The position numbers were made by a program, and so were the translations under genes. Shown one piece after another: positions 1 through 22,176 of a stretch of 64,000 nucleotides of DNA. The stretch lies in contig JBAYHK010000004.1 in assembly GCA_041666145.1 (NCBI GenBank), positions 20,542 to 84,541 of the forward strand, written 5' to 3'. The first letter of the stretch is position 1. Every line of letters begins with the position of its first letter. The notes under the pieces are model-generated. The model did not search any database. It had not been told where the DNA came from and was given only the letters and a program-made list of their open reading frames with translations. Origin of the DNA: Patescibacteria group bacterium. Lineage in GTDB: Bacteria; Patescibacteriota; Patescibacteriia; UBA9934.

Positions 1-3000
1 ACTCCATCTCCACATACAGACGGATCTGAATAACTCACTGATGAACCGATAAACGTACAAGAATCTGAACAACCCTCATCCCCATCACAATCTTCACCAA
101 TGCCGCTATCAGAAATAAGATCGACGCTATTGTTTCCGCAACAATCAACGTCAGAAGACGACGAACAGGCCGACAGTCCTTCGCGAATACATATCGACGA
201 ACATCCGTCATCATTTTCAATGTTCCCATCGTCACAAGTTTCATACGGCGTTGTAATAACGCCATCACCACAAAGCGCATTTCCAAGCGCGGCTAAACTT
301 TGAGATCCTTCACGCAAACACTGTCGAGAACATCCGTCACCGCTTGCATTATTTCCGTCATCACACTCTTCGCCAGCACGAGTAGTTGTGTTATATGCAA
401 CATCATTATTTCCACACGTAGCCTCAACTGCTGCAGATCCCTCCGCGAGACACATTGACGAACAGCCATCACCATCGACAAGGTTCCCATCATCACAGTC
501 TTCAGCAATGTCACTACTATAATTCACTTCGATGTCTCTGTTTCCGCAACAATTCGACCCAGAAGTTCCACATGATGATTCTGCGTACAAACAATCACTA
601 TTTGTTACACAAGCGCTACCGCTCAACGTACAAAGCGACGTCGACGTATCACAAGTCTCTATACACTCAGAGTCTGCAGTGCAAGAAGCTCCTGAAGAGC
701 TACAAACAAACGAACAGGCAGTACTGCCTTCATACAGACACATCGAAGAACACCCATCGTGATCTGTAGTATTTCCGTCATCGCATTCCTCTCCACCACC
801 ATTTGAATCTTGATCCAAAACACCATCACCACATACAGCCTGATACGCAGAACTTCCACCAGGAGTACAGCTCGCTGAACATCCTTCTGTAATACCAGTA
901 ATACTGCCATCAAGAAGCTCTCCTGACTGTGTATACCAAGCCGCAGTCGATGCAGTAGTTTCAGTATTTTGTGCATCATCAAGAATTGGATCTTCCCAAC
1001 TCCAGGCATAATCGCTACCAACAAGTCGCTGTCCAGAAGTCGAACAAGCGTCCGCTGCACCAAATGCATCAACGCTAAAGGCCGCAGTCTCGCCTATTGC
1101 TGTTGCAGTAGCAATAGATGGCGCGAGATCAATACGCTCAACAGAACAAAGCGTTCCGTCCTCACGGACTCGGAATGTCCAAGAATATCCCGTTCCATAA
1201 TTCGTTCTTGTTAAAGCCACGCCACTAACACTTCGAACCGATCCAGAAACGATAACTCGATAATACGTTCCTACTGTCAAAACTTGAGATTCAAACGTGA
1301 ATCCATTACATAACGTCCCCGCTGCATCACTATAAGAACATGACGGATTCGAGCTAACTTGCGTTAATGTTGTACACAATTCATTCGCACAAGAATACAA
1401 AAGAATATTTCCACCAGAAATAATGTCACCCTCTGTCATCGTGGTATTGAATAAAGCACCCACCTGAGCATTCGAACATGACTCAGTACAATCTGGCCAA
1501 AAATCCGAAATATATGGATCGGTAAAGTTTACTGTTAATTGCGAATCATCAGAAATCGCCCCTCCGCTCTCACTGTTTATTGCGGTTGCCGTAACTGTAG
1601 TAACGCCTTCTGCAAAAGCCTCAAATGTTGCACACGCTGTTGGATCTCCTGCGCACTCATTGTCTATAGAAGAATTGAAATCAACATAAGAATAAGAATC
1701 AATCGACCAATCCCACGCATAATCGTCATTATCTACAACAACGCATCCCGTTCCTGCATTTGCTCCAAATCCAGTTGTCGCGCCATCCTCACTCAAAGTT
1801 TCGCTTACAGGAGTCACAGTTACACGGTCAACAACACAATCTTCATCAGTTGCCGCAGTTGTAAAAGTCCAAGTCTCGTCGCTAGCCAAAGGAGTGGAGT
1901 CGATCGATTGCGCTACAGTCGAAACCGTAACCTGATATGTTGTATTTACATCAAAATTCTCAGTCGGAACCCACATGAAACGCGTAGCAGATTCTGATGA
2001 AGACACTGTTGCAATTCCCGAGACCGCCTCCGTAGTTGCACACGAATTATCCGTCGAGCTACTCACCGTCGCAGTGCACTTCGCCACCGTAACAGCATCC
2101 GCAACCGACGCTTCGTTCATGAGCGCCGTAAATTCTGCGTATACTGCCGCATTCACGCAGATCTCTCCTGATTCGGAGAATTCATTGCTTGGCACTGCAG
2201 AGACAATATCTGAAGAACATTCAGAAACAATCTGCGGCACCTCAGCAATCTCTCCAGTTGAAAAGCTCCAAGCATATGACGCGTAGACTCCTGCAGTCGT
2301 TACTGCAGATTCCGCAGAACCAACAGAAAAGTTTACAGCATTACTTGAAACACCATCCACGATTATCGATAAAGGACCGGTCGTAGCACCGACTGGAACA
2401 GGAACATCAATTGCGTCATTCGTCCAACGCGTCGAAGATGCTGTCGTAACACCACTATAGAAAGAAACGAGGTCGATATCACTTCCGAAGTTATCGCCAG
2501 CAATCGTGATACTTTCACCAACATTCCCAGATGCAGTAATCGCACAAATACCAGGAGTTGGACTATCTGTAGAAATAGTGAAATCTATTGAAGTCGATTC
2601 AGTTCCCTGACTGTTCGTCACCGAAACTGTATAAGCACCAGGAGCTATGTCTTGTCCGCTGTCATACGATTTCGGAACAATAACCGTGACTTGATCGTCA
2701 TTCCAAAAATCCGACAAACAAGCTTCAGGAAAATCAATACTCGCAGTAGCAGTGGTTCCATCACCGCCTCGGAATGTCACAGTTCCAACGCTACTTCGAA
2801 AATTCGTTCCGGAAATCGTTACGTACTGTCCAACCCCTCCAGAGCTTGGACTAATATCCGTAATTGTAGAGACATCGGTCTCTGGAACGTCGACAGTAAA
2901 GGAAATGGTATTCGAAGTGTTCCCGCCAACAACCACCGCAACGTCATAATCACCGGCATCTGCATTAGGAATAGTCACTTTCACTGTTCCATCAGCCCAT

Positions 3001-4721
3001 GACGTATACGAACCAGCTTCTACAGAAGAAAAATTCACCACCGATTCCCCTTGAGACTCTCCAAAATTAGATCCAGAAAGCGTGAGAGCTGACTCTGACT
3101 GACCAGAAGATCTTGAAAGTGTGCACAAATTCGGCATCACAACATCGTTCACGTCGAAATTTGAAACTAGTGCACCGTTGTCATCATCCGTGGCATCAGA
3201 AACATCATTTCCGGATGTAATTAAAATTGGACCATCGCCTGCACCTTCCGGTACCTCAACAACAATCTGCGTGTCACTCCATCCATCCGCACAATCATTC
3301 AACACAGTCGCCTCTACCGTTCCAGTCCCTGCCGCATCATAAAACATTACCGTTCCTGTATTTGCTCCAAAATCTGTTCCGGAAATTGTTACAAATGTTC
3401 CAACCGCACCAGAAATTGGAGCGACGTCAGTAATTGTTGGATTTGATGTACAAACAGACTCTTCACAAGATCCGCTTGAACATTCAGTAGCCTCTGTACA
3501 GCTCGAACCGTCACACGCACCACAATACGTGCTCAGTGAAGAGTCGCCTCCACAGTCAGTCCCAGTTTCACCAAGATCAGCGTCAGTAACTCCATTAAAA
3601 CACCACTCAGGTTGCGCGCGAACAGAAACTGTATCTGTATCTTCATTACCAGCAAGATCAAAAACAGTTGCGGAAATACTATATCGCTCACCATCCACAA
3701 AAGACTCGGTACTCAATGTGGTGCCAATCGTTGTCTCTGCTAAATGTCCAAGTGCCGGAACGCTGTCTTGCCAAACATCTTCAATAGAAAAGTCCGCAGA
3801 AACGACTACAACATTATCAATTGCACTTACCTGAACATCCATACTCGATGCCGACGCGACTCCAGCTCCACTCTCAGGAATAGTGATACTGGCCGAAGGG
3901 TCTTCAGTGTCAACATTTACTCCAGAAGTAAATGTCGCAGAGCACGGAGCGTCAAAACTACACGTCAAAATAACACCGTCTGAACTCTTTATGTTTTCCG
4001 TTGCAGCAATCGTGAATGTTGCATCTTTATCAAAACAGAATCGATCCGCATTCGGTTCAGGACATGCCGTACTCGGAGTAAAACGAATCACGTTATCTAA
4101 CACTGCATAATCTCCTGCAACCGCAGTACCAGATGCATCAACAATACTTAAATTTCCATCAACCGTCGTTTCATCTATTGCCTTACTAAATGTTACTCGA
4201 GGAACGATATTTCGAATTGACGTTTCTCCATCTGGAGAAAAGCTTGTTATTTCGAAAAGCGACGACGCACTGCCACCAAGACCAGATCCCGAACCAGAGC
4301 CTCCGCCAGCTCCAGAACCGCCAGATCCGCCTCCAGAAGCACCTGTTAATGCAGAAAGAACAAACGTCGCAATGCTCCATGACAACAAAATAATTACAAG
4401 TCCTATAGCCGCATTAATTAAAACCTGTTTTGCTTTATCAACTTTTTCCGGATTACCTTCAGCTGTCATCCAAAGAAAACCACCATATACAACAAAACAA
4501 ACTAGAACTATGCCAATGAATCCGAGTGCATAACGAATAATATTTCCAACAATGATCTTTGGATCTTCAGACCCGAGACCGGTGGTCTCTCCAACTGTCG
4601 TTAAATTCTCAGTAACCGCATCTGCAGCAAAGGCTACCTTTGGAAAACTACCAAAGGCTCCGAAAATCAATAAAAGTCCTAGTCCTATTCCTGCGAAAAA
4701 ATGGCGAAAAGAAATCTTCAC
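1..4721 (-). CDS. Giant cell-surface protein, partial (3' end/C-terminus lies beyond window start). It has an N-terminal signal peptide plus TrbC/VirB2-like two-helix membrane module, a Gly/Ser linker, four or more IPT/TIG-like repeats, and C-terminal CxxDDGN...DGCSxxC Cys-rich repeats (DUF4215 / Myxococcus-type)
   Basis: The minus frame with codon phase set by GTG at 4721 is open across all 4721 nt. No long ORF is listed in the track because the stop is outside the window. Hand translation gives VKISFRHFFAGIGLGLLLIFGAFGSFPKVAFAADA...GFLWMTAEGNPEKVDKAKQVLINAAIGLVIILLSW...GGSGGSGAGGGSGSGSG, then IPT-like ISGTDFGANTGTVMFYD repeats, then GDGVxxxxEECDDGNxxxGDGCSxxC repeats. The N-terminus aligns with the downstream paralog 4732..6561. 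Confidence 0.75.
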   Translation of the reverse strand, partial: MKISFRHFFAGIGLGLLLIFGAFGSFPKVAFAADAVTENLTTVGETTGLGSEDPKIIVGNIIRYALGFIGIVLVCFVVYGGFLWMTAEGNPEKVDKAKQVLINAAIGLVIILLSWSIATFVLSALTGASGGGSGGSGAGGGSGSGSGLGGSASSLFEITSFSPDGETSIRNIVPRVTFSKAIDETTVDGNLSIVDASGTAVAGDYAVLDNVIRFTPSTACPEPNADRFCFDKDATFTIAATENIKSSDGVILTCSFDAPCSATFTSGVNVDTEDPSASITIPESGAGVASASSMDVQVSAIDNVVVVSADFSIEDVWQDSVPALGHLAETTIGTTLSTESFVDGERYSISATVFDLAGNEDTDTVSVRAQPEWCFNGVTDADLGETGTDCGGDSSLSTYCGACDGSSCTEATECSSGSCEESVCTSNPTITDVAPISGAVGTFVTISGTDFGANTGTVMFYDAAGTGTVEATVLNDCADGWSDTQIVVEVPEGAGDGPILITSGNDVSDATDDDNGALVSNFDVNDVVMPNLCTLSRSSGQSESALTLSGSNFGESQGESVVNFSSVEAGSYTSWADGTVKVTIPNADAGDYDVAVVVGGNTSNTISFTVDVPETDVSTITDISPSSGGVGQYVTISGTNFRSSVGTVTFRGGDGTTATASIDFPEACLSDFWNDDQVTVIVPKSYDSGQDIAPGAYTVSVTNSQGTESTSIDFTISTDSPTPGICAITASGNVGESITIAGDNFGSDIDLVSFYSGVTTASSTRWTNDAIDVPVPVGATTGPLSIIVDGVSSNAVNFSVGSAESAVTTAGVYASYAWSFSTGEIAEVPQIVSECSSDIVSAVPSNEFSESGEICVNAAVYAEFTALMNEASVADAVTVAKCTATVSSSTDNSCATTEAVSGIATVSSSESATRFMWVPTENFDVNTTYQVTVSTVAQSIDSTPLASDETWTFTTAATDEDCVVDRVTVTPVSETLSEDGATTGFGANAGTGCVVVDNDDYAWDWSIDSYSYVDFNSSIDNECAGDPTACATFEAFAEGVTTVTATAINSESGGAISDDSQLTVNFTDPYISDFWPDCTESCSNAQVGALFNTTMTEGDIISGGNILLYSCANELCTTLTQVSSNPSCSYSDAAGTLCNGFTFESQVLTVGTYYRVIVSGSVRSVSGVALTRTNYGTGYSWTFRVREDGTLCSVERIDLAPSIATATAIGETAAFSVDAFGAADACSTSGQRLVGSDYAWSWEDPILDDAQNTETTASTAAWYTQSGELLDGSITGITEGCSASCTPGGSSAYQAVCGDGVLDQDSNGGGEECDDGNTTDHDGCSSMCLYEGSTACSFVCSSSGASCTADSECIETCDTSTSLCTLSGSACVTNSDCLYAESSCGTSGSNCCGNRDIEVNYSSDIAEDCDDGNLVDGDGCSSMCLAEGSAAVEATCGNNDVAYNTTTRAGEECDDGNNASGDGCSRQCLREGSQSLAALGNALCGDGVITTPYETCDDGNIENDDGCSSICIREGLSACSSSSDVDCCGNNSVDLISDSGIGEDCDGDEGCSDSCTFIGSSVSYSDPSVCGDG

Positions 4722-4731
4722 AAATGAATGT

Positions 4732-6543
4732 TTAGAAGAGCGTACATGCCGTCGACTGAGGAGTGCCATTACAACAATATGGAGAACTTGCAGTTGTCCC
4801 ACAACTACCACCGTTACTATCTGGGCCTTCCCCTGGAACAAAACAATTCTGATACTCGTTAAGAACTCCTTCGTTCGCCGCAACGCCATACATGAATGAC
4901 AAAGGAGGAACCGCCACTGAATCAGACGCAAGGAATGTTCCATGCTCAATCGTCACCATTGTTTTTACTGGAATTTGTGAATCAGTTAATACTTCTTCAT
5001 TTGCATCAGTCAACCAAACTGTTCTAAAGGCATACCAAAGTTCATGATCGTCGTTAGAATTGACCTCTTTATTTGAAAGCTCGATATTCGAAGAGTTCAC
5101 GCTCGATGTGTCTAATATTGAATCAAATGTAATCTGAATGGATTGGTCTAACGCAATATTTTCACTCAAAATTTCCGGAGCAATGCTTTCAATCGCTGGA
5201 GCGTCAAGATTTATATTATTTGTAGTAGTAAAACTCCAAATGTAATCATCGCCTGCACTGACGACACCATCACCATTTCCATCCATAGAGTTTCCTGACG
5301 TATCAACAATTCCATCGTAAGGATATATCGAAGCCGTCGGGTCTGTTGACGACGTTGGAGTAGCGGAAGCAATAGACGCTGTCACTAATTGACCACCAGG
5401 AAGGCAGTAAATCGTCTCACCACATGAGTTCGTTCCACAAGCGTCAGTAGTTGTGAATGTAACAGTTCGATATCCATTTCCAATTGTATATTCGCCTGCG
5501 GTTGGTGCAGACACCGACGCACCAACAACCTGAATATTCGAAAAACCACTTTCAGCTTCACGAATTCCAGAGGCGGAAGTTGGATCGACTGCCTCGCTAA
5601 ATGTCATCTGAACAGTAATGTTCCTATCTTTTGTCGAATTTGCCGATGGGGCAATGTTTTCAACTGTAGGTGGAGTAATATCGACTGTTGTTCCGGTTGT
5701 GAAGTACCAAAGGTATCCTCCGTCATCGATCATGGTCGCTCCTGTTGCGTCTTGAATTGAATCGCTCAAAAAGACTGCATACGTCACATCAGCAGTCGCA
5801 GAGCCAAGATATTCAGCTGGATCAAAAGAAAATGTTTTTAAATCATCAGTAAACGACACCGCCACATTCGTCAACGCGGAAGAATCACCAGTATCACGAA
5901 CATAAATTTTTACGTTTTCTGTATTTATTGCCGTTGCGACAGTATCGTCAGATACGTCTTCTGGAGTTCCGTTTGTATTGTATCCGTCAATAAACGATGA
6001 AATGTCCATTGCATCTCTAAACGTCACAAAAATCCGTGTATTTCGAGAAACGTCGGTGGCATTACGTGCTGGATAATGGTCTCTAATTGCGCCAGAGCCA
6101 AGCGAATTTGAAAGCCTTTCAACAGAAATACTACCCGAGCCATCTCCACTTCCGCTCCCCCCTGTTGCACCTCCGAGCGTATTCAAAATAAACGTCGCAA
6201 TCGCATAAGCAGAAAGTGTTATCACCAAACCAACAACTGCATTAATTAAGATCGCCTTTGCTTTCTCAACCCTCTTGCCATCTCCTCCTGCCGTCATCCA
6301 AATTGCACCAGCGTAAACAAAAAGGATCAAACAAATCACGCCAAGCAAACTCAATGCAACATTAATAACACGACCGATAATTGTCAGTAAATCTGTGTCT
6401 GCAAAACCGCCACCAGTTCCAACGGTGGCAAGATTTGCATCAGCGGCAAACGCGAAAAATGGAACAGCGATCAAGAACCCAATTGCAACAAAGAAAGAAC
6501 CGCGTTTGAACGCTCGAAAAAAAGAAGGGTTGAACACATGCAT
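4732..6543 (-). CDS. Surface protein paralog (~600 aa) with signal peptide plus TrbC/VirB2-like membrane module, GSGSGDGSGS linker and Big_5/SbsA-like Ig domains. Track ORF extends to 6561; start at MHVFNPSFF (6543) preferred by alignment to the paralog
   Basis: ORF 4732..6561. Two hydrophobic helices INVALSLLGVICLILFVYAGAIWM / LINAVVGLVITLSAYAIATFIL are separated by GGDGKRVEKAKA, matching VirB2/TrbC topology. ITPPTVENIAP...MTFSEAVD is Ig-like. Confidence 0.8.
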   Translation of the reverse strand: MHVFNPSFFRAFKRGSFFVAIGFLIAVPFFAFAADANLATVGTGGGFADTDLLTIIGRVINVALSLLGVICLILFVYAGAIWMTAGGDGKRVEKAKAILINAVVGLVITLSAYAIATFILNTLGGATGGSGSGDGSGSISVERLSNSLGSGAIRDHYPARNATDVSRNTRIFVTFRDAMDISSFIDGYNTNGTPEDVSDDTVATAINTENVKIYVRDTGDSSALTNVAVSFTDDLKTFSFDPAEYLGSATADVTYAVFLSDSIQDATGATMIDDGGYLWYFTTGTTVDITPPTVENIAPSANSTKDRNITVQMTFSEAVDPTSASGIREAESGFSNIQVVGASVSAPTAGEYTIGNGYRTVTFTTTDACGTNSCGETIYCLPGGQLVTASIASATPTSSTDPTASIYPYDGIVDTSGNSMDGNGDGVVSAGDDYIWSFTTTNNINLDAPAIESIAPEILSENIALDQSIQITFDSILDTSSVNSSNIELSNKEVNSNDDHELWYAFRTVWLTDANEEVLTDSQIPVKTMVTIEHGTFLASDSVAVPPLSFMYGVAANEGVLNEYQNCFVPGEGPDSNGGSCGTTASSPYCCNGTPQSTACTLF

Positions 6544-8628: not shown

Positions 8629-10665
8629 TCAGTAGAGATCGATGACCGCGTGCCCGTCGTATCCCCATCCCCAGTCGAAGGGCAGAGGGGAAATGGAAAC
8701 GCCTTCGAGGGTGACATCTTCACAATGATCGACGTCCTGGTAGAGCCACGTACCGTCACCAAAGTCGTGCTCCTCTCCGTAGGTCCCATCCGCGTCGTTG
8801 TCGAAGGGGCCGTTCAGAGCGACCGTGTGGCCGTGCACGAACAGGAAGTCGGTACAGAGCATGCCGAAGCCCTGCGCATAGCCCGGGAAGTCCCAGTCTG
8901 GGTCGAGGCTGCCGTCAGGAATGACGGTCCAGTCACGAATCCAGAGCTGCCAGGATACGCTCATGAGACCAGTCACCGGAGTAACGCAGATCTCCAAGGT
9001 ATCGGAGACATTCGCCAAGCCGTCGCAGTTGTCGTCCACGCCGTTCATGGACACTTCTTCGGCGTCAGGGTTGATCTCGGCATCCAGGTCGTTGCAGTCG
9101 CCGTCTTCCACGGTGAAGCCGTCGCTATCGGCGTCGGCGTCGTCGCAGGTCAGATCTTCGTCGACGCTGTCATCGCAGTCATCGTCCATGTCGTTGCAGA
9201 CTTCGTCGGCGGCGGGGTTGATGCCGGAATTTCCGTCGTCGCAGTCGGTGCTGTCGGAGACGTAGCCCTCGGGCGCGGAACAGGCAATCGCCGGAGTCCC
9301 GGAGCCGTAACCGTCATCGTCCATGTCGAGATAGAAGGAGGACATGAGCCCTTCATCCACCGCGCCGTCACAGTCGTCGTCGATACCATTGCAGGCTTCG
9401 GGGGCGCCGTTGTAGATGGCGGAGTCGGTGGGCTGGCAGTCCGTGATGTCCGGATCGCCGTCACCGTCGGTGTCGACCTCGGGCTCGGGTTCGCAGACAT
9501 CTCCTTCGTCGACGGCGGTGTCGCAGTCGTTGTCGATGGTGTCGCAGATCTCGGTGGCGCCGGGGTTGATGGCGGAGAGGAGGTCGTTGCAGTCGGTGTC
9601 GTCGGCGATGAAGCCGGTGGGAGCACCGTCACAGGTAGATTCCGAATTGGTGCTGTCGCCGTAGCCATCGCTGTCGCTGTCCGCGTACCAGGTGGCAAAG
9701 GGCAAGCCCTCGTCGATCTCGCTGTCGCAGTTGTCATTCACGCCGTTGCAGACTTCGGAGGCGCCGGGGTAGATGGCGATGTTGGAGTCGTTGCAGTCGG
9801 TGCTGTCGGAGACGTAGCCTTCGGGCGCAGAGCAGGCGGCAACGGAAACATCGATGTCCCCATAACCGTCCGTATCCGTGTCCCTGTAGAAGGCGTAGAG
9901 CTCAACTCCACTGTCCGCGGCGTCGACGAGCAGGTCACAGTCGTTGTCGATGGTGTCGCAGATCTCGGTGGCGCCGGGGTTGATGGCGGAGAGGAGGTCG
10001 TTGCAGTCGGTGCTGTCGGAGACGTAGCCTTCGGGCGCGGAGCAGGCGAGCATCATCATATCGGGGTCGCCGTAGCCGTCATCGTCATCGTCCACGAAGA
10101 AAGTGCTCGTGACGTCCTCATCGACGTCGCCATCGCAGTTGTCGTCGAGGCCGTTGCATTCTTCGGTGGCATCGGGATTGGTCTCGATGTCATCGTCGTC
10201 GCAGTCGCCGTCGATGGTGGCGTAGCCTTCGGTTCCGCAGGCCATGAAGCTTTCGCCGGTGCCGTAGGAATCGCCGTCGCTGTCGGTGTAGACAGGAACG
10301 TCGGCGTCCGTGACGTCAGCACTTTCATCGTTGCAGTCGCCGAAGTTGGTGCCCTCGGTCGAAGTGACTTCAATCCATTCTTCTTCCGGAGTGCCCGCGT
10401 AGATGCAGAAGCAGCCGGTGTGGAACGGATCCGAGACGCTCGCGTTGACGTAGGTGTCGCCGTCGGCGTCGGGGCAGTAGGCCTTGAGGGGGTCGGCGGA
10501 ACCGCTCACCACAAGGGCGAGACAGTCTTCAACGGTGGCGCCAGCCGGGAGATCTTTTCCCGTGGCATTGGTGCCAGGGATGTCGTAGATGTCATCGGTC
10601 TTGGTGGAACAGCCCATGAGGGCGAGGAGAAGGAGCGTAGCTCCGGAGATACTGGTGGATTTCAT
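8629..10665 (-). CDS. Secreted lipoprotein (678 aa) with about 8 tandem DxDCND..INPGAxExCDxxDNDCDxxxDE putative metal-binding (MopE-like, PF11617-type) repeats; markedly GC-rich
   Basis: MKSTSISGATLLLLALMGCS lipobox; repeated ...DCNDLLSAINPGATEICDTIDNDCD...; the gene is visibly GC-rich relative to flanking genes (GC not computed). Confidence 0.85.
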   Translation of the reverse strand: MKSTSISGATLLLLALMGCSTKTDDIYDIPGTNATGKDLPAGATVEDCLALVVSGSADPLKAYCPDADGDTYVNASVSDPFHTGCFCIYAGTPEEEWIEVTSTEGTNFGDCNDESADVTDADVPVYTDSDGDSYGTGESFMACGTEGYATIDGDCDDDDIETNPDATEECNGLDDNCDGDVDEDVTSTFFVDDDDDGYGDPDMMMLACSAPEGYVSDSTDCNDLLSAINPGATEICDTIDNDCDLLVDAADSGVELYAFYRDTDTDGYGDIDVSVAACSAPEGYVSDSTDCNDSNIAIYPGASEVCNGVNDNCDSEIDEGLPFATWYADSDSDGYGDSTNSESTCDGAPTGFIADDTDCNDLLSAINPGATEICDTIDNDCDTAVDEGDVCEPEPEVDTDGDGDPDITDCQPTDSAIYNGAPEACNGIDDDCDGAVDEGLMSSFYLDMDDDGYGSGTPAIACSAPEGYVSDSTDCDDGNSGINPAADEVCNDMDDDCDDSVDEDLTCDDADADSDGFTVEDGDCNDLDAEINPDAEEVSMNGVDDNCDGLANVSDTLEICVTPVTGLMSVSWQLWIRDWTVIPDGSLDPDWDFPGYAQGFGMLCTDFLFVHGHTVALNGPFDNDADGTYGEEHDFGDGTWLYQDVDHCEDVTLEGVSISPLPFDWGWGYDGHAVIDLY

Positions 10666-16704: not shown

Positions 16705-16800
16705 ACGCTGGCAAACGAATAGAACTCGGGAAGAGTATACCGTAAACTGATTCTCCGCAACCGCGGCAAACAAAAAATCTCCATAAAACTGGAGATTTTT

Positions 16801-16877
16801 TGGTGGATGTTGGTGGGTTCGAACCACCGACCTCTGTCGTGTGAGGACAGCGCTCTAACCAGCTGAGCTAAACATCC
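16801..16877 (-). tRNA. tRNA-Val (anticodon CAC)
   Basis: 77-nt cloverleaf on minus strand: GGAUGUU-UA-GCUC-AGCUGGUUA-GAGC-G-CUGUC-CUCACAC-GACAG-AGGUC-GGUGGUUCGAACCCACC-AACAUCC-A-CCA. Confidence 0.85.
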
Positions 16878-16915: not shown

Positions 16916-16950
16916 CTCATAGGTCCTATAAGTCTTATAGGACCTATGAG
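16916..16950. repeat. 35-bp perfect palindrome CTCATAGGTCCTATAAG-T-CTTATAGGACCTATGAG (founding copy of a repeat family)
   Basis: Perfect inverted repeat; related copies at 22148..22176, 60568..60600 and a variant at 47603..47636. Confidence 0.85.
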
Positions 16951-17000: not shown

Positions 17001-17127
17001 AGAGAACGCTTTTTATTTCGGCCAGTTTCGATGAACCAGGAGGAAAGTTCGTGAAACGTACTTCTTGGTACGTTGAACGAATTTCCGACGCAGTGAGTCG
17101 AAAATGGACAAATAAAAAGCGTTCTCT
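17001..17127. ncRNA. Candidate structured RNA / repeat element, copy A (~127 nt). An 18-bp closing helix encloses the conserved core TTTCGATGAACCAGGAGGAAAGTTCGTGAAACGTAC...GTACGTTGAACGAATTTCCGACGCAGTGAGTCGAAA
   Basis: Closing helix AGAGAACGCTTTTTATTT (17001..17018) pairs perfectly with AAATAAAAAGCGTTCTCT (17110..17127). The core is about 85 percent identical to copy B at 46123..46247, whose closing helix has a completely different sequence. Confidence 0.4.
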
Positions 17128-17212
17128 GGTGCCGCGGGAGGGACTCGAACCCTCAATCCCTTACGAGAAACGGATTTTGAGTCCGTCGCGTATACCATTC
17201 CGCCACCGCGGC
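17127..17212 (-). tRNA. tRNA-Leu (anticodon CAA), class II with long variable arm
   Basis: 86 nt: GCCGCGG-UG-GCGGAAUGGUAUACGC-GACGGA-CUCAAAA-UCCGUU-UCUCGUAAGGGAUUGA-GGGUUCGAGUCCCUC-CCGCGGC-A-CCA. Confidence 0.8.
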
Positions 17213-22147: not shown

Positions 22148-22176
22148 ATAGGTCCTATAGGTCTAATAGGACCTAT
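22148..22176. repeat. Palindromic repeat copy ATAGGTCCTATAGGTCTAATAGGACCTAT in the 42-nt asnS-aspS spacer
   Basis: Imperfect inverted repeat sharing the ATAGGTCCTATA / TAGGACCTAT arms with 16916..16950. Confidence 0.8.

Follow-up and report, generated by a model that had tools for sequence, protein, structure and literature searches.

A 64,000-nucleotide stretch of contig JBAYHK010000004.1 (hereafter the window), from an organism assigned by its sequence to the Patescibacteria (candidate phyla radiation, CPR) with Candidatus Uhrbacteria as its closest named relatives, carries three short palindromes, copies A, B and C, each built from three tandem palindromic nonamers. The nonamer triplets form a real family: the same sequence recurs in many bacterial phyla, it sits preferentially at the 3′ side of genes, and it is associated with a gene for a four-helix-bundle protein. 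At a probability of roughly 0.55, we read the palindromes of the window as solo copies of a selfish hairpin element composed of three nonamers, common to many phyla and similar in kind to the intervening sequences (IVSs) of 23S rRNA and to repetitive extragenic palindromes (REPs).

Architecture and statistics of the three copies

Copy A is a perfect palindrome of 35 nt at 16916-16950 (CTCATAGGTCCTATAAGTCTTATAGGACCTATGAG), exactly as a first-pass annotation of this DNA had described it. Each palindrome consists of three tandem 9-bp units (unit ATAGGNCCT), every one of which is itself palindromic; the 11-mer ATAGGNCCTAT forms a dyad on its own, with adjacent units sharing two bases, and the overall dyad symmetry is largely, and much of it automatically, a product of the tandem repetition of this palindromic unit. 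The units run ATAGGTCCT ATAAGTCTT ATAGGACCT AT in copy A, ATAGGTCCT ATAGGTCTA ATAGGACCT AT in copy B and ATAAGTCCT ATAGGTCCT ATAAGACCT AT in copy C. All three copies (35, 29 and 35 nt long) fit a family definition of TA[AG]GNC[CT]TA repeated three times in 9-bp phase, with outer centres T...A and a middle G-W-C, and the consensus of the nonamer triplet is TAGGTCCTA-TAGGACNTA-TAGGACCTA with a period of 9. Copies A and C additionally share flanks outside the universal core (TCA...TGA), which suggests that a unit of 33-35 bp was copied within the source lineage. As RNA, the copies are predicted to form stems of 11-16 bp, with folding energies of -27.8, -15.6 and -18.8 kcal/mol for A, B and C (z = -6.9, -3.6 and -4.3); in copy C, the trxB ATG lies inside the 3′ arm and two of the pairs are G·U on the sense strand.

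The number of copies far exceeds expectation. A profile hidden Markov model (HMM) trained on 102 copies from other genomes finds sites A, B and C at E ~1e-8 each and nothing else convincing in the window; unit triplets in 9-bp phase, with at most one mismatch per unit, start only at 16920, 22149 and 60571, whereas 100 second-order Markov simulations produced none; and the exact 11-mer occurs five times (16919, 16937, 22148, 22166 and 60579), where 100 dinucleotide shuffles give an expectation of 0.00. These figures bear out both of the related copies that had been proposed earlier, in the spacer between two aminoacyl-tRNA synthetase (aaRS) genes and in that between trxA and trxB. They also effectively refute chance similarity or low-complexity sequence as the source of the three copies, none being expected, even though the copies number only three and a partial match in comEC illustrates that coding sequence can mimic two units. 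That match, previously taken for a degenerate copy, scores weakly (HMM E 5e-4, fold z -1.6) and encodes AIGLIGLIGTY, the residues that come right behind the HPHSDH motif of the metallo-beta-lactamase domain; probably this is comEC's own coding sequence, resembling two units, rather than a member of the family.

Every neighbour of the three copies is a co-directional minus-strand gene, and all three spacers are very short, just as the first-pass annotation had said of the clear copies. Across 74 kb, comprising the window and ~10 kb of the source contig, over which the gene annotation extends, there are three copies, all of them extragenic and downstream of a gene or a tRNA.

The same triplet in other phyla

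Scanning one genome per species for the pattern TARGNCCTAT-N7-ATARGNCCTA, we matched at least 120 stretches. The matches listed include Acidobacteriota, Verrucomicrobiota, Planctomycetota, Lentisphaerae, Bacteroidota, Chlorobi, Ignavibacteria, Cloacimonadota, Nitrospirota, Desulfobacterota/"Deltaproteobacteria", Armatimonadota, CPR (Uhrbacteria and Saccharibacteria) and others, with several genomes matched on 3-5 contigs each. The 29-nt core of copy A is identical at 29/29 positions to a locus of Luteolibacter (L052), and that of copy C, again at 29/29, to a Planctomycetota locus (L024). Conservation extends to the seven middle bases that the pattern leaves free: among 102 isolated triplets from the 120 loci listed, we counted A in 76, G in 66, G in 98 (position 13), A/T in 90, C in 96 (position 15) and T in 70. 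At the centres of the outer units, T..A is likewise found in 44 of these triplets versus A..T in 4, an excess that pairing does not explain, since both arrangements give equally stable hairpins. The cross-phylum triplets are not chance matches.

Among the matches listed, crude open reading frame (ORF) calls, which over-call coding sequence, place 87 sites in intergenic DNA and 44 in 'coding' sequence, and by the same calls the intergenic sites fall into 46 co-directional, 25 convergent and 6 divergent spacers. Many sites touch a stop codon and most lie just downstream of genes, and at a subset of loci the palindrome runs on into lineage-specific flanks. Triplets also occur in frame within genes, including the variable loop of the adenylation domain of nonribosomal peptide synthetases (NRPSs), where the triplet encodes YRSYRTNRTY, as well as a membrane protein and other proteins. 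The NRPS instances (L025 253-279, L037 1710-1736 and L079 4235-4261) come from Aminicenantes and a Deferrimicrobium metagenome-assembled genome and share the context …AEKF-[Y/N]RSYR[T/S]NRTY-…YKTGDLARW; further in-frame triplets were seen at L015 and L030. Separately, we observed long tandem nonamer arrays of up to at least 11 units (TATAAGTCC, TATAAGACC, TATAAGCCC) in Cloacimonadota, Prevotella and Lentisphaeria (L106 390-488; L033 1314-1403 and 5344-5415; L035 576-638; L009 3-47; L067 ~3977-4636).

Raw pattern counts were rejected as a measure of enrichment, as in viral contigs a G/C-swapped control matched just as often as the real pattern did (55 and 46 matches, with 3 for an A/T-swapped control). 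Because such counts are uninformative, the analysis is based on isolated triplets and on loci selected by protein. The viral loci (L124-L224) matched by patterns that place a Gly codon every nine bases (GGNCCTATA, GGTATACCN) are, for the real and the swapped pattern alike, mostly collagen-like genes of phages and giant viruses, and any search for DNA patterns of period 9 is liable to be misled by such G-X-Y genes.

A four-helix-bundle gene associated with the triplets

Clustering of the ORFs near triplets brought out one family that is not generically abundant, a protein of ~190 aa present at 10 of the 120 loci listed and in at least 5 phyla. It matches TIGR02436 (four-helix bundle; the Pfam family 23S_rRNA_IVP falls just under the cut-off) and TIGR04258 (a suffix domain), and the suffix-domain subfamily comprises >8000 sequence clusters. 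A confident structure model (pLDDT 84.7) has the S23p pentamers 2GSC and 2RLD as its nearest structures. Protein identity across phyla is 63-82%, which points to horizontal spread of the TIGR04258 gene; no such four-helix-bundle gene was found in viral contigs, PADLOC or PHROGs.

For an unbiased set, 80 metagenome loci were fetched by protein alone, from at least 588 relatives, and searched for nonamer arrays (at least two units in phase). No array lies more than 300 bp from the TIGR04258 gene (0 in 215 kb), versus 22 within 300 bp (43.8 kb; 13 upstream and 9 downstream) and a further 42 within the gene itself. Upstream arrays often sit 25-40 nt ahead of the matched start and downstream arrays at +1 to +35, and both the ATG and the TAA stop of the gene often fall within flanking units, as the trxB ATG does in copy C. 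At one locus (L067), nonamer arrays stand on either side of the gene.

The internal site encodes a linker, NRSYxTYxxY, at codons ~117-130 (L228-L307), and its codon usage departs sharply from that of the remainder of the gene. The linker Arg codon is AGG in 42/43 genes versus 110/758 (15%) elsewhere in the same genes, and the linker Tyr codon is TAT in 81/86 cases (94%) versus 147/275 (53%) elsewhere, while the Ser wobble position is free. This bias implies that selection acts on the nucleotides and on the encoded peptide alike: the TIGR04258 reading frame contains a nucleic-acid element that nucleotide-level selection holds in place. Read on the sense strand, copies A, B and C share the arrangement of the internal site, with centre bases T, A and A. 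As no four-helix-bundle gene was found in the 74 kb of the source genome, the window copies are tied to the TIGR04258 gene through the family only.

As to how the element spreads, the leading candidate would be that the four-helix-bundle protein recognises the nonamers. We tentatively propose, as a more specific idea that stands well short of even odds, a horizontally spreading partnership in which an S23p/Avd-like TIGR04258 protein recognises nonamer triplets (ATAGGNCCT)3 before, inside and after its own gene, and gene-less triplets derived from it have settled in spacers, tRNA operons and reading frames of at least 10 phyla including CPR; the whole would form a REP/RAYT-like replicator without a recognisable transposase, possibly acting through an IVS-like RNA processed by RNase III.

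The triplets could instead be operator arrays bound by a dimeric protein with affinity for nucleic acids, which might be the four-helix-bundle protein, with solo sites representing its regulon. The dyad formed by ATAGGNCCTAT, the fixed 9-bp spacing of three units and the conservation of centre bases and of the 'loop' unit beyond what pairing needs would all suit such a protein, as would the sites ahead of the associated gene (25-40 nt) and those of the window, which lie shortly before trxB, AspRS and tRNA-Val. Operators, however, would not be expected to prefer gene 3′ ends, with convergent spacers outnumbering divergent (promoter) spacers by 25 to 6, to occur in frame in unrelated genes, or to be gained and lost rapidly at orthologous sites. 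With no four-helix-bundle gene found in the 74 kb either, we consider this explanation distinctly unlikely. A search for sigma-70 promoters (-35/-10 hexamers with 16-18 nt spacing) returned no promoter-like call overlapping copies A-C.

Two further observations concern the TIGR04258 genes themselves. Several are followed by an ORF that starts ...LQHL.FCERQCALIH.EQ.W.EN..T.EG...HE.. (L028 ~1900-2100, L072 past 7460 and L244 past 3537), which we take to resemble Cas4, and some JGI records label TIGR04258 homologues 'restriction system protein'; the cassette could conceivably favour defence loci.

Gain and decay at orthologous sites

Comparison with relatives, denoted here by their percent identity, revealed that nonamer copies are polymorphic insertions in the source lineage, arising and decaying at single spacers. 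At site C, the element is retained in the 97% relative, where two bases are substituted, the 81% relative has a 27-nt remnant (ATAGGCCTT ATTCGACCT ATCGGTTTT) in which the 9-nt register is held and palindromy is lost, and the 77% relative lacks the element, having a 68-nt spacer with an ordinary terminator. At site B, the spacer of the 91% relative is 113 nt long and contains a different palindromic repeat of ~90 nt (present three times in that relative's 21 kb), and in the 80% relative the genes abut, with a spacer of only TAATATG. At site A, unrelated sequence replaces the palindrome in the tRNA-Leu/tRNA-Val spacer of the 91% relative, while the adjacent structured RNA is kept with 12 compensatory pairs. 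An HMM search of the relatives' 20-kb stretches found no further nonamer-triplet copies.

These empty and decayed sites imply that copies A, B and C are insertions of different ages, with copy C, judged against the relatives, the oldest of the three. The first-pass annotation had regarded copy A as the founder of the family; because it is perfect and missing from the 91% relative, we reverse this view, and copy A is probably the youngest.

The ~90-nt repeat belongs to a second palindromic family (core CAGTCATTCTGAGC...GTTCAGGATGACTG, -47.7 kcal/mol) that is unrelated to the nonamer triplet. It occurs in the 91% relative (L315) at 5554-5642, 6108-6193 and 9906-9993, with a fragment at 19494-19521 of L312/L313, and fills short operon spacers, including the aaRS-aaRS spacer that holds copy B in the source genome; it is absent from the window. 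Different hairpin families seem to replace one another between close CPR relatives.

Predicted RNA hairpins and their possible roles

On our preferred reading of the triplets as a selfish element, a copy would be tolerated in short spacers 3′ of genes, inherited vertically once inserted, and slowly lost. The window copies would be transcribed within polycistronic minus-strand RNAs and would fold there into hairpins of 11-16 bp without a U tract, so that any molecular effect is likely to be exerted at the RNA level. Such a hairpin may act as a processing site for a double-strand-specific (RNase III-type) nuclease, or as a barrier or protection at 3′ ends; copy C has an RNase III gene 8 kb away on the same contig. 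The hairpin of copy C may in addition occlude the trxB start, in which case trxB translation would depend on ribosomes arriving from trxA.

Effects of this kind could also have been selected by the host, with REP-like RNA elements stabilising upstream transcripts, setting cistron ratios or guiding the processing of tRNA and mRNA precursors. The strong predicted hairpins at all three copies would fit, as would their invariable placement on the transcribed side of tight co-directional units, the retention of copy C in the 97% relative with imperfect pairs that are G·U on the sense strand, and the family-wide bias toward gene 3′ ends. Several results nevertheless make a host role unlikely, though one to be reckoned with: sites A and B are empty or otherwise occupied at 91%, and site B also at 80%; site C is non-palindromic at 81% and has an ordinary terminator instead at 77%; triplets occur in frame within genes; and the loop bases are conserved, for which a purely structural role has no need. 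Counts of sense-strand G·U versus A·C (6 versus 8) and of middle-unit orientation relative to transcription (10 versus 7), both from a small sample, also give this explanation no help.

The first-pass annotation had further suggested that the palindromes might serve as attenuators. Hairpins containing G+C downstream of stop codons would suit intrinsic (Rho-independent) terminators or attenuators, and a T run does follow the triplet in some other phyla (e.g., L087 and L085). No U tract, however, follows A, B or C, and a terminator scan calls none of them; the genome uses ordinary hairpin-plus-U terminators elsewhere (e.g., 20796-20769), and copy C overlaps the trxB start codon, all of which makes this role very improbable.

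Relation to known repeats

One of two close mechanistic precedents is the REP/RAYT arrangement, with the REP/REPIN sequences of Enterobacteria, Pseudomonas and Stenotrophomonas, which are multi-copy extragenic palindromes of 20-40 bp, mostly downstream of genes and occasionally within them, that form RNA hairpins and are tied to a small dedicated gene flanked by repeats (PMC3733652). In REP/RAYT systems, the repeats that flank this one gene are also scattered through the genome, and a terminal tetranucleotide, GTAG or CGTC, defines the two REP superfamilies (PMC3733652). The nonamer element, by contrast, has no such tag, is made of three tandem palindromic nonamers and is near-identical in many phyla, and its associated gene encodes an S23p-type four-helix bundle without known catalytic activity rather than a Y1 transposase. 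The earlier description of the palindromes as REP-like therefore holds for their multi-copy nature, their short 3′ spacers and their insertion polymorphism, and fails for the tag, with no RAYT gene found in the 74 kb.

These differences also bear on whether the copies are classical REPs or REPINs moved by a RAYT transposase whose gene lies in another part of the genome. Their length, palindromic form, placement outside genes and multiplicity agree with this, and REPs within genes are known (PMC3733652). Against it, neither GTAG nor CGTC occurs at the ends of any copy (CTCATAGG.../...CCTATGAG, CTTATAGG.../...CCTATTAC and TTCATAAG.../...CCTATGAG), no Y1 transposase or RAYT is found among the annotated genes of the 74 kb, the gene associated with the triplets elsewhere is a four-helix bundle and not a transposase, and near-identity across phyla is unlike REPIN-RAYT systems, which are described as mostly inherited vertically. 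We regard this origin as improbable.

The other close mechanistic precedent is provided by the IVSs of 23S rRNA (Coxiella, Leptospira, Xanthomonas and Brucella). There, an S23p ORF of the same superfamily (PF05635/TIGR02436) stands between complementary termini that pair into a stem cleaved by RNase III; these IVSs are sporadically distributed and regarded as selfish and horizontally acquired (PMC4990558). The nonamer element differs in lying outside rRNA, in that its bracketing triplets also occur alone in mRNA and tRNA spacers, and in that its gene holds the repeat internally as well and encodes an additional suffix domain (TIGR04258) at the C terminus. ORF-less IVSs also exist, and by analogy the window copies may be gene-less relatives of a gene-bearing cassette, related to it as ORF-less IVSs are to ORF-bearing ones. 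The window copies themselves were rejected as 23S rRNA IVSs: they lie between tRNAs, between aaRS genes and between trxA and trxB rather than in helix 9, 25 or 45, there is no rRNA in the window, and the copies are gene-less there, whereas IVS-type termini around an S23p ORF are present elsewhere in the nonamer family.

Other systems share single features. Avd of the diversity-generating retroelements, which carries the same family label (PF05635), is a small and basic pentamer that binds nucleic acids and partners a mobile-information system; an inspection of TIGR04258 genes, which was not systematic, turned up neither a reverse transcriptase nor a template/variable repeat pair beside them. 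The STRR heptamers of cyanobacteria are, like the nonamers, short tandem units dispersed in intergenic DNA, in their case of a whole clade; to our knowledge they are non-palindromic, confined to cyanobacteria and without an associated gene, whereas the nonamers are palindromic and have one. Rickettsia palindromic elements (RPEs) are roughly 100-150 bp long. They are selfish palindromes found in frame in genes as well as in spacers, and carry a CGTC tag at one end (PMC3733652); the nonamer element, in contrast to these elements described in Rickettsia, is 27-35 bp long, untagged and cross-phylum. We infer that the nonamer copies behave as selfish or near-neutral insertional DNA, comparable to REPs, RPEs and the 23S rRNA IVSs.

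Several further identities were examined. With regard to miniature inverted-repeat transposable elements, copies A-C show no evident flanking duplication, no insertion sequence with these ends was seen, and 27-35 bp is below the usual size of such elements. A DNA-uptake sequence, considered since comEC is present, was rejected on the grounds that the same sequence occurs across phyla and at only ~3 copies per 74 kb. AGGWCCT is a subset of GGWCC/RGGWCCY restriction sites, and with 53 sites in the window GGWCC is no rarity there. Searches of the window with Rfam 15 gave only tRNAs at the gathering score, with sub-threshold microRNA matches (E 0.37 or worse) over copy A, and at both gathering and permissive thresholds nothing relevant was returned for 8 loci from other phyla.

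A number of points weigh against the selfish-element reading. No transposase or other enzyme able to move a 27-bp unit was identified, no target-site duplication is evident at copies A-C, and the 74 kb of the source genome contain no four-helix-bundle/PF05635 gene by annotation or, for the window, by tblastn. Flanking nonamers accompany only ~20% of the protein-selected loci. The phylum distribution of the triplet is a sample drawn from the at least 120 matches, the crude ORF calls counted even copy C of the window as coding, and collagen-like G-X-Y coding repeats confound raw counts of period-9 patterns. Finally, the small change of copy C in the 97% relative, with both mismatches G·U on the sense strand, would also fit a host function.

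Genomic context

The features surrounding the copies are collected in Table 1. The window belongs to a metagenomic contig of 258 kb, and essentially identical sequence has also been assembled from other samples.

Table 1. Positions of the nonamer copies, the comEC match and the neighbouring genes in the window.
Feature	Position	Strand	Remarks
Copy A	16916..16950		nonamer core 16919-16947 plus a 3-bp extension on each side (CTC / GAG; ends CTCA...TGAG)
Copy B	22148..22176		directly after the TAA stop of the upstream aaRS gene; 15 nt ahead of the AspRS(Asn) ATG (minus-strand reading)
Copy C	60567..60601		entire trxA-trxB spacer; minus-strand sense TAA CTCATAGGTCTTATAGGACCTATAGGACTT ATG
comEC partial match	47605..47633	-	doubtful; scores in text
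tRNA-Leu(CAA)	17127..17212	-	upstream neighbour in the transcription unit holding copy A
Structured RNA, family not assigned	17002..17126	-	conserved; separates tRNA-Leu from copy A; listed for context and distinct from the repeat
tRNA-Val(CAC)	16801..16877	-	downstream neighbour of copy A
Class-IIb aminoacyl-tRNA synthetase, 432 aa	22176..23474	-	PF01336, PF00152; stop codon adjoins copy B
Aspartate--tRNA(Asn) ligase (AspRS), 437 aa	20820..22133	-	downstream of copy B
Thioredoxin gene (trxA)	60602..60913	-	stop codon adjoins copy C
Thioredoxin reductase gene (trxB)	59645..60571	-	start codon within copy C

The structured RNA beside copy A, ~125 nt long, directly follows tRNA-Leu on its 3′ side and belongs to the same transcription unit as tRNA-Leu, copy A and tRNA-Val. 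Compared with the 91% relative (L315:16039-16185), 12 of its 41 predicted pairs are changed on both sides with pairing kept, and Rfam yields nothing for it even with E allowed up to 10. Right after tRNA-Val, at 16772-16801 on the minus strand, an A-tract, a hairpin and a T-tract (AAAAAATCTCCA GTTTTA TGGAGATTTTTT) look like the real terminator of the tRNA-Leu...tRNA-Val unit, though the terminator scan missed it. At the other end of the size range, a giant gene of >3147 aa occupies window positions 1-4700 and extends past the window start (L318 12904-21095); it has T4SS_pilin, Big_5, TIG and VWA domains, is preceded by a paralogue-like gene of 603 aa, and probably encodes a surface or pilus-associated protein of the source CPR organism.

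Significance

In open-access full text we found no description of this sequence, of nonamer repeats of this kind, of TIGR04258 or of this element in CPR. We regard the element as a probable selfish palindromic repeat, unusual in the range of phyla that it reaches and unexpected in the protein with which it is associated. If this is correct, a 27-nt sequence is shared with hardly a change by such distant phyla as Acidobacteriota, Verrucomicrobiota, Bacteroidota and CPR, which would be very unusual, as bacterial repeats are normally lineage-specific. It would also provide the first concrete nucleic-acid partner for the very large 23S rRNA IVS protein/four-helix-bundle family, to which no function has been assigned, and would make the function of the four-helix bundle directly testable with a defined 27-mer. 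Three phenomena hitherto treated apart, the REP-like hairpins of spacers, palindromes inserted in frame and the intervening sequences of rRNA, would thereby be linked, and even the very compact genomes of CPR bacteria would be seen to be colonised by families of intergenic hairpins that turn over between close relatives.

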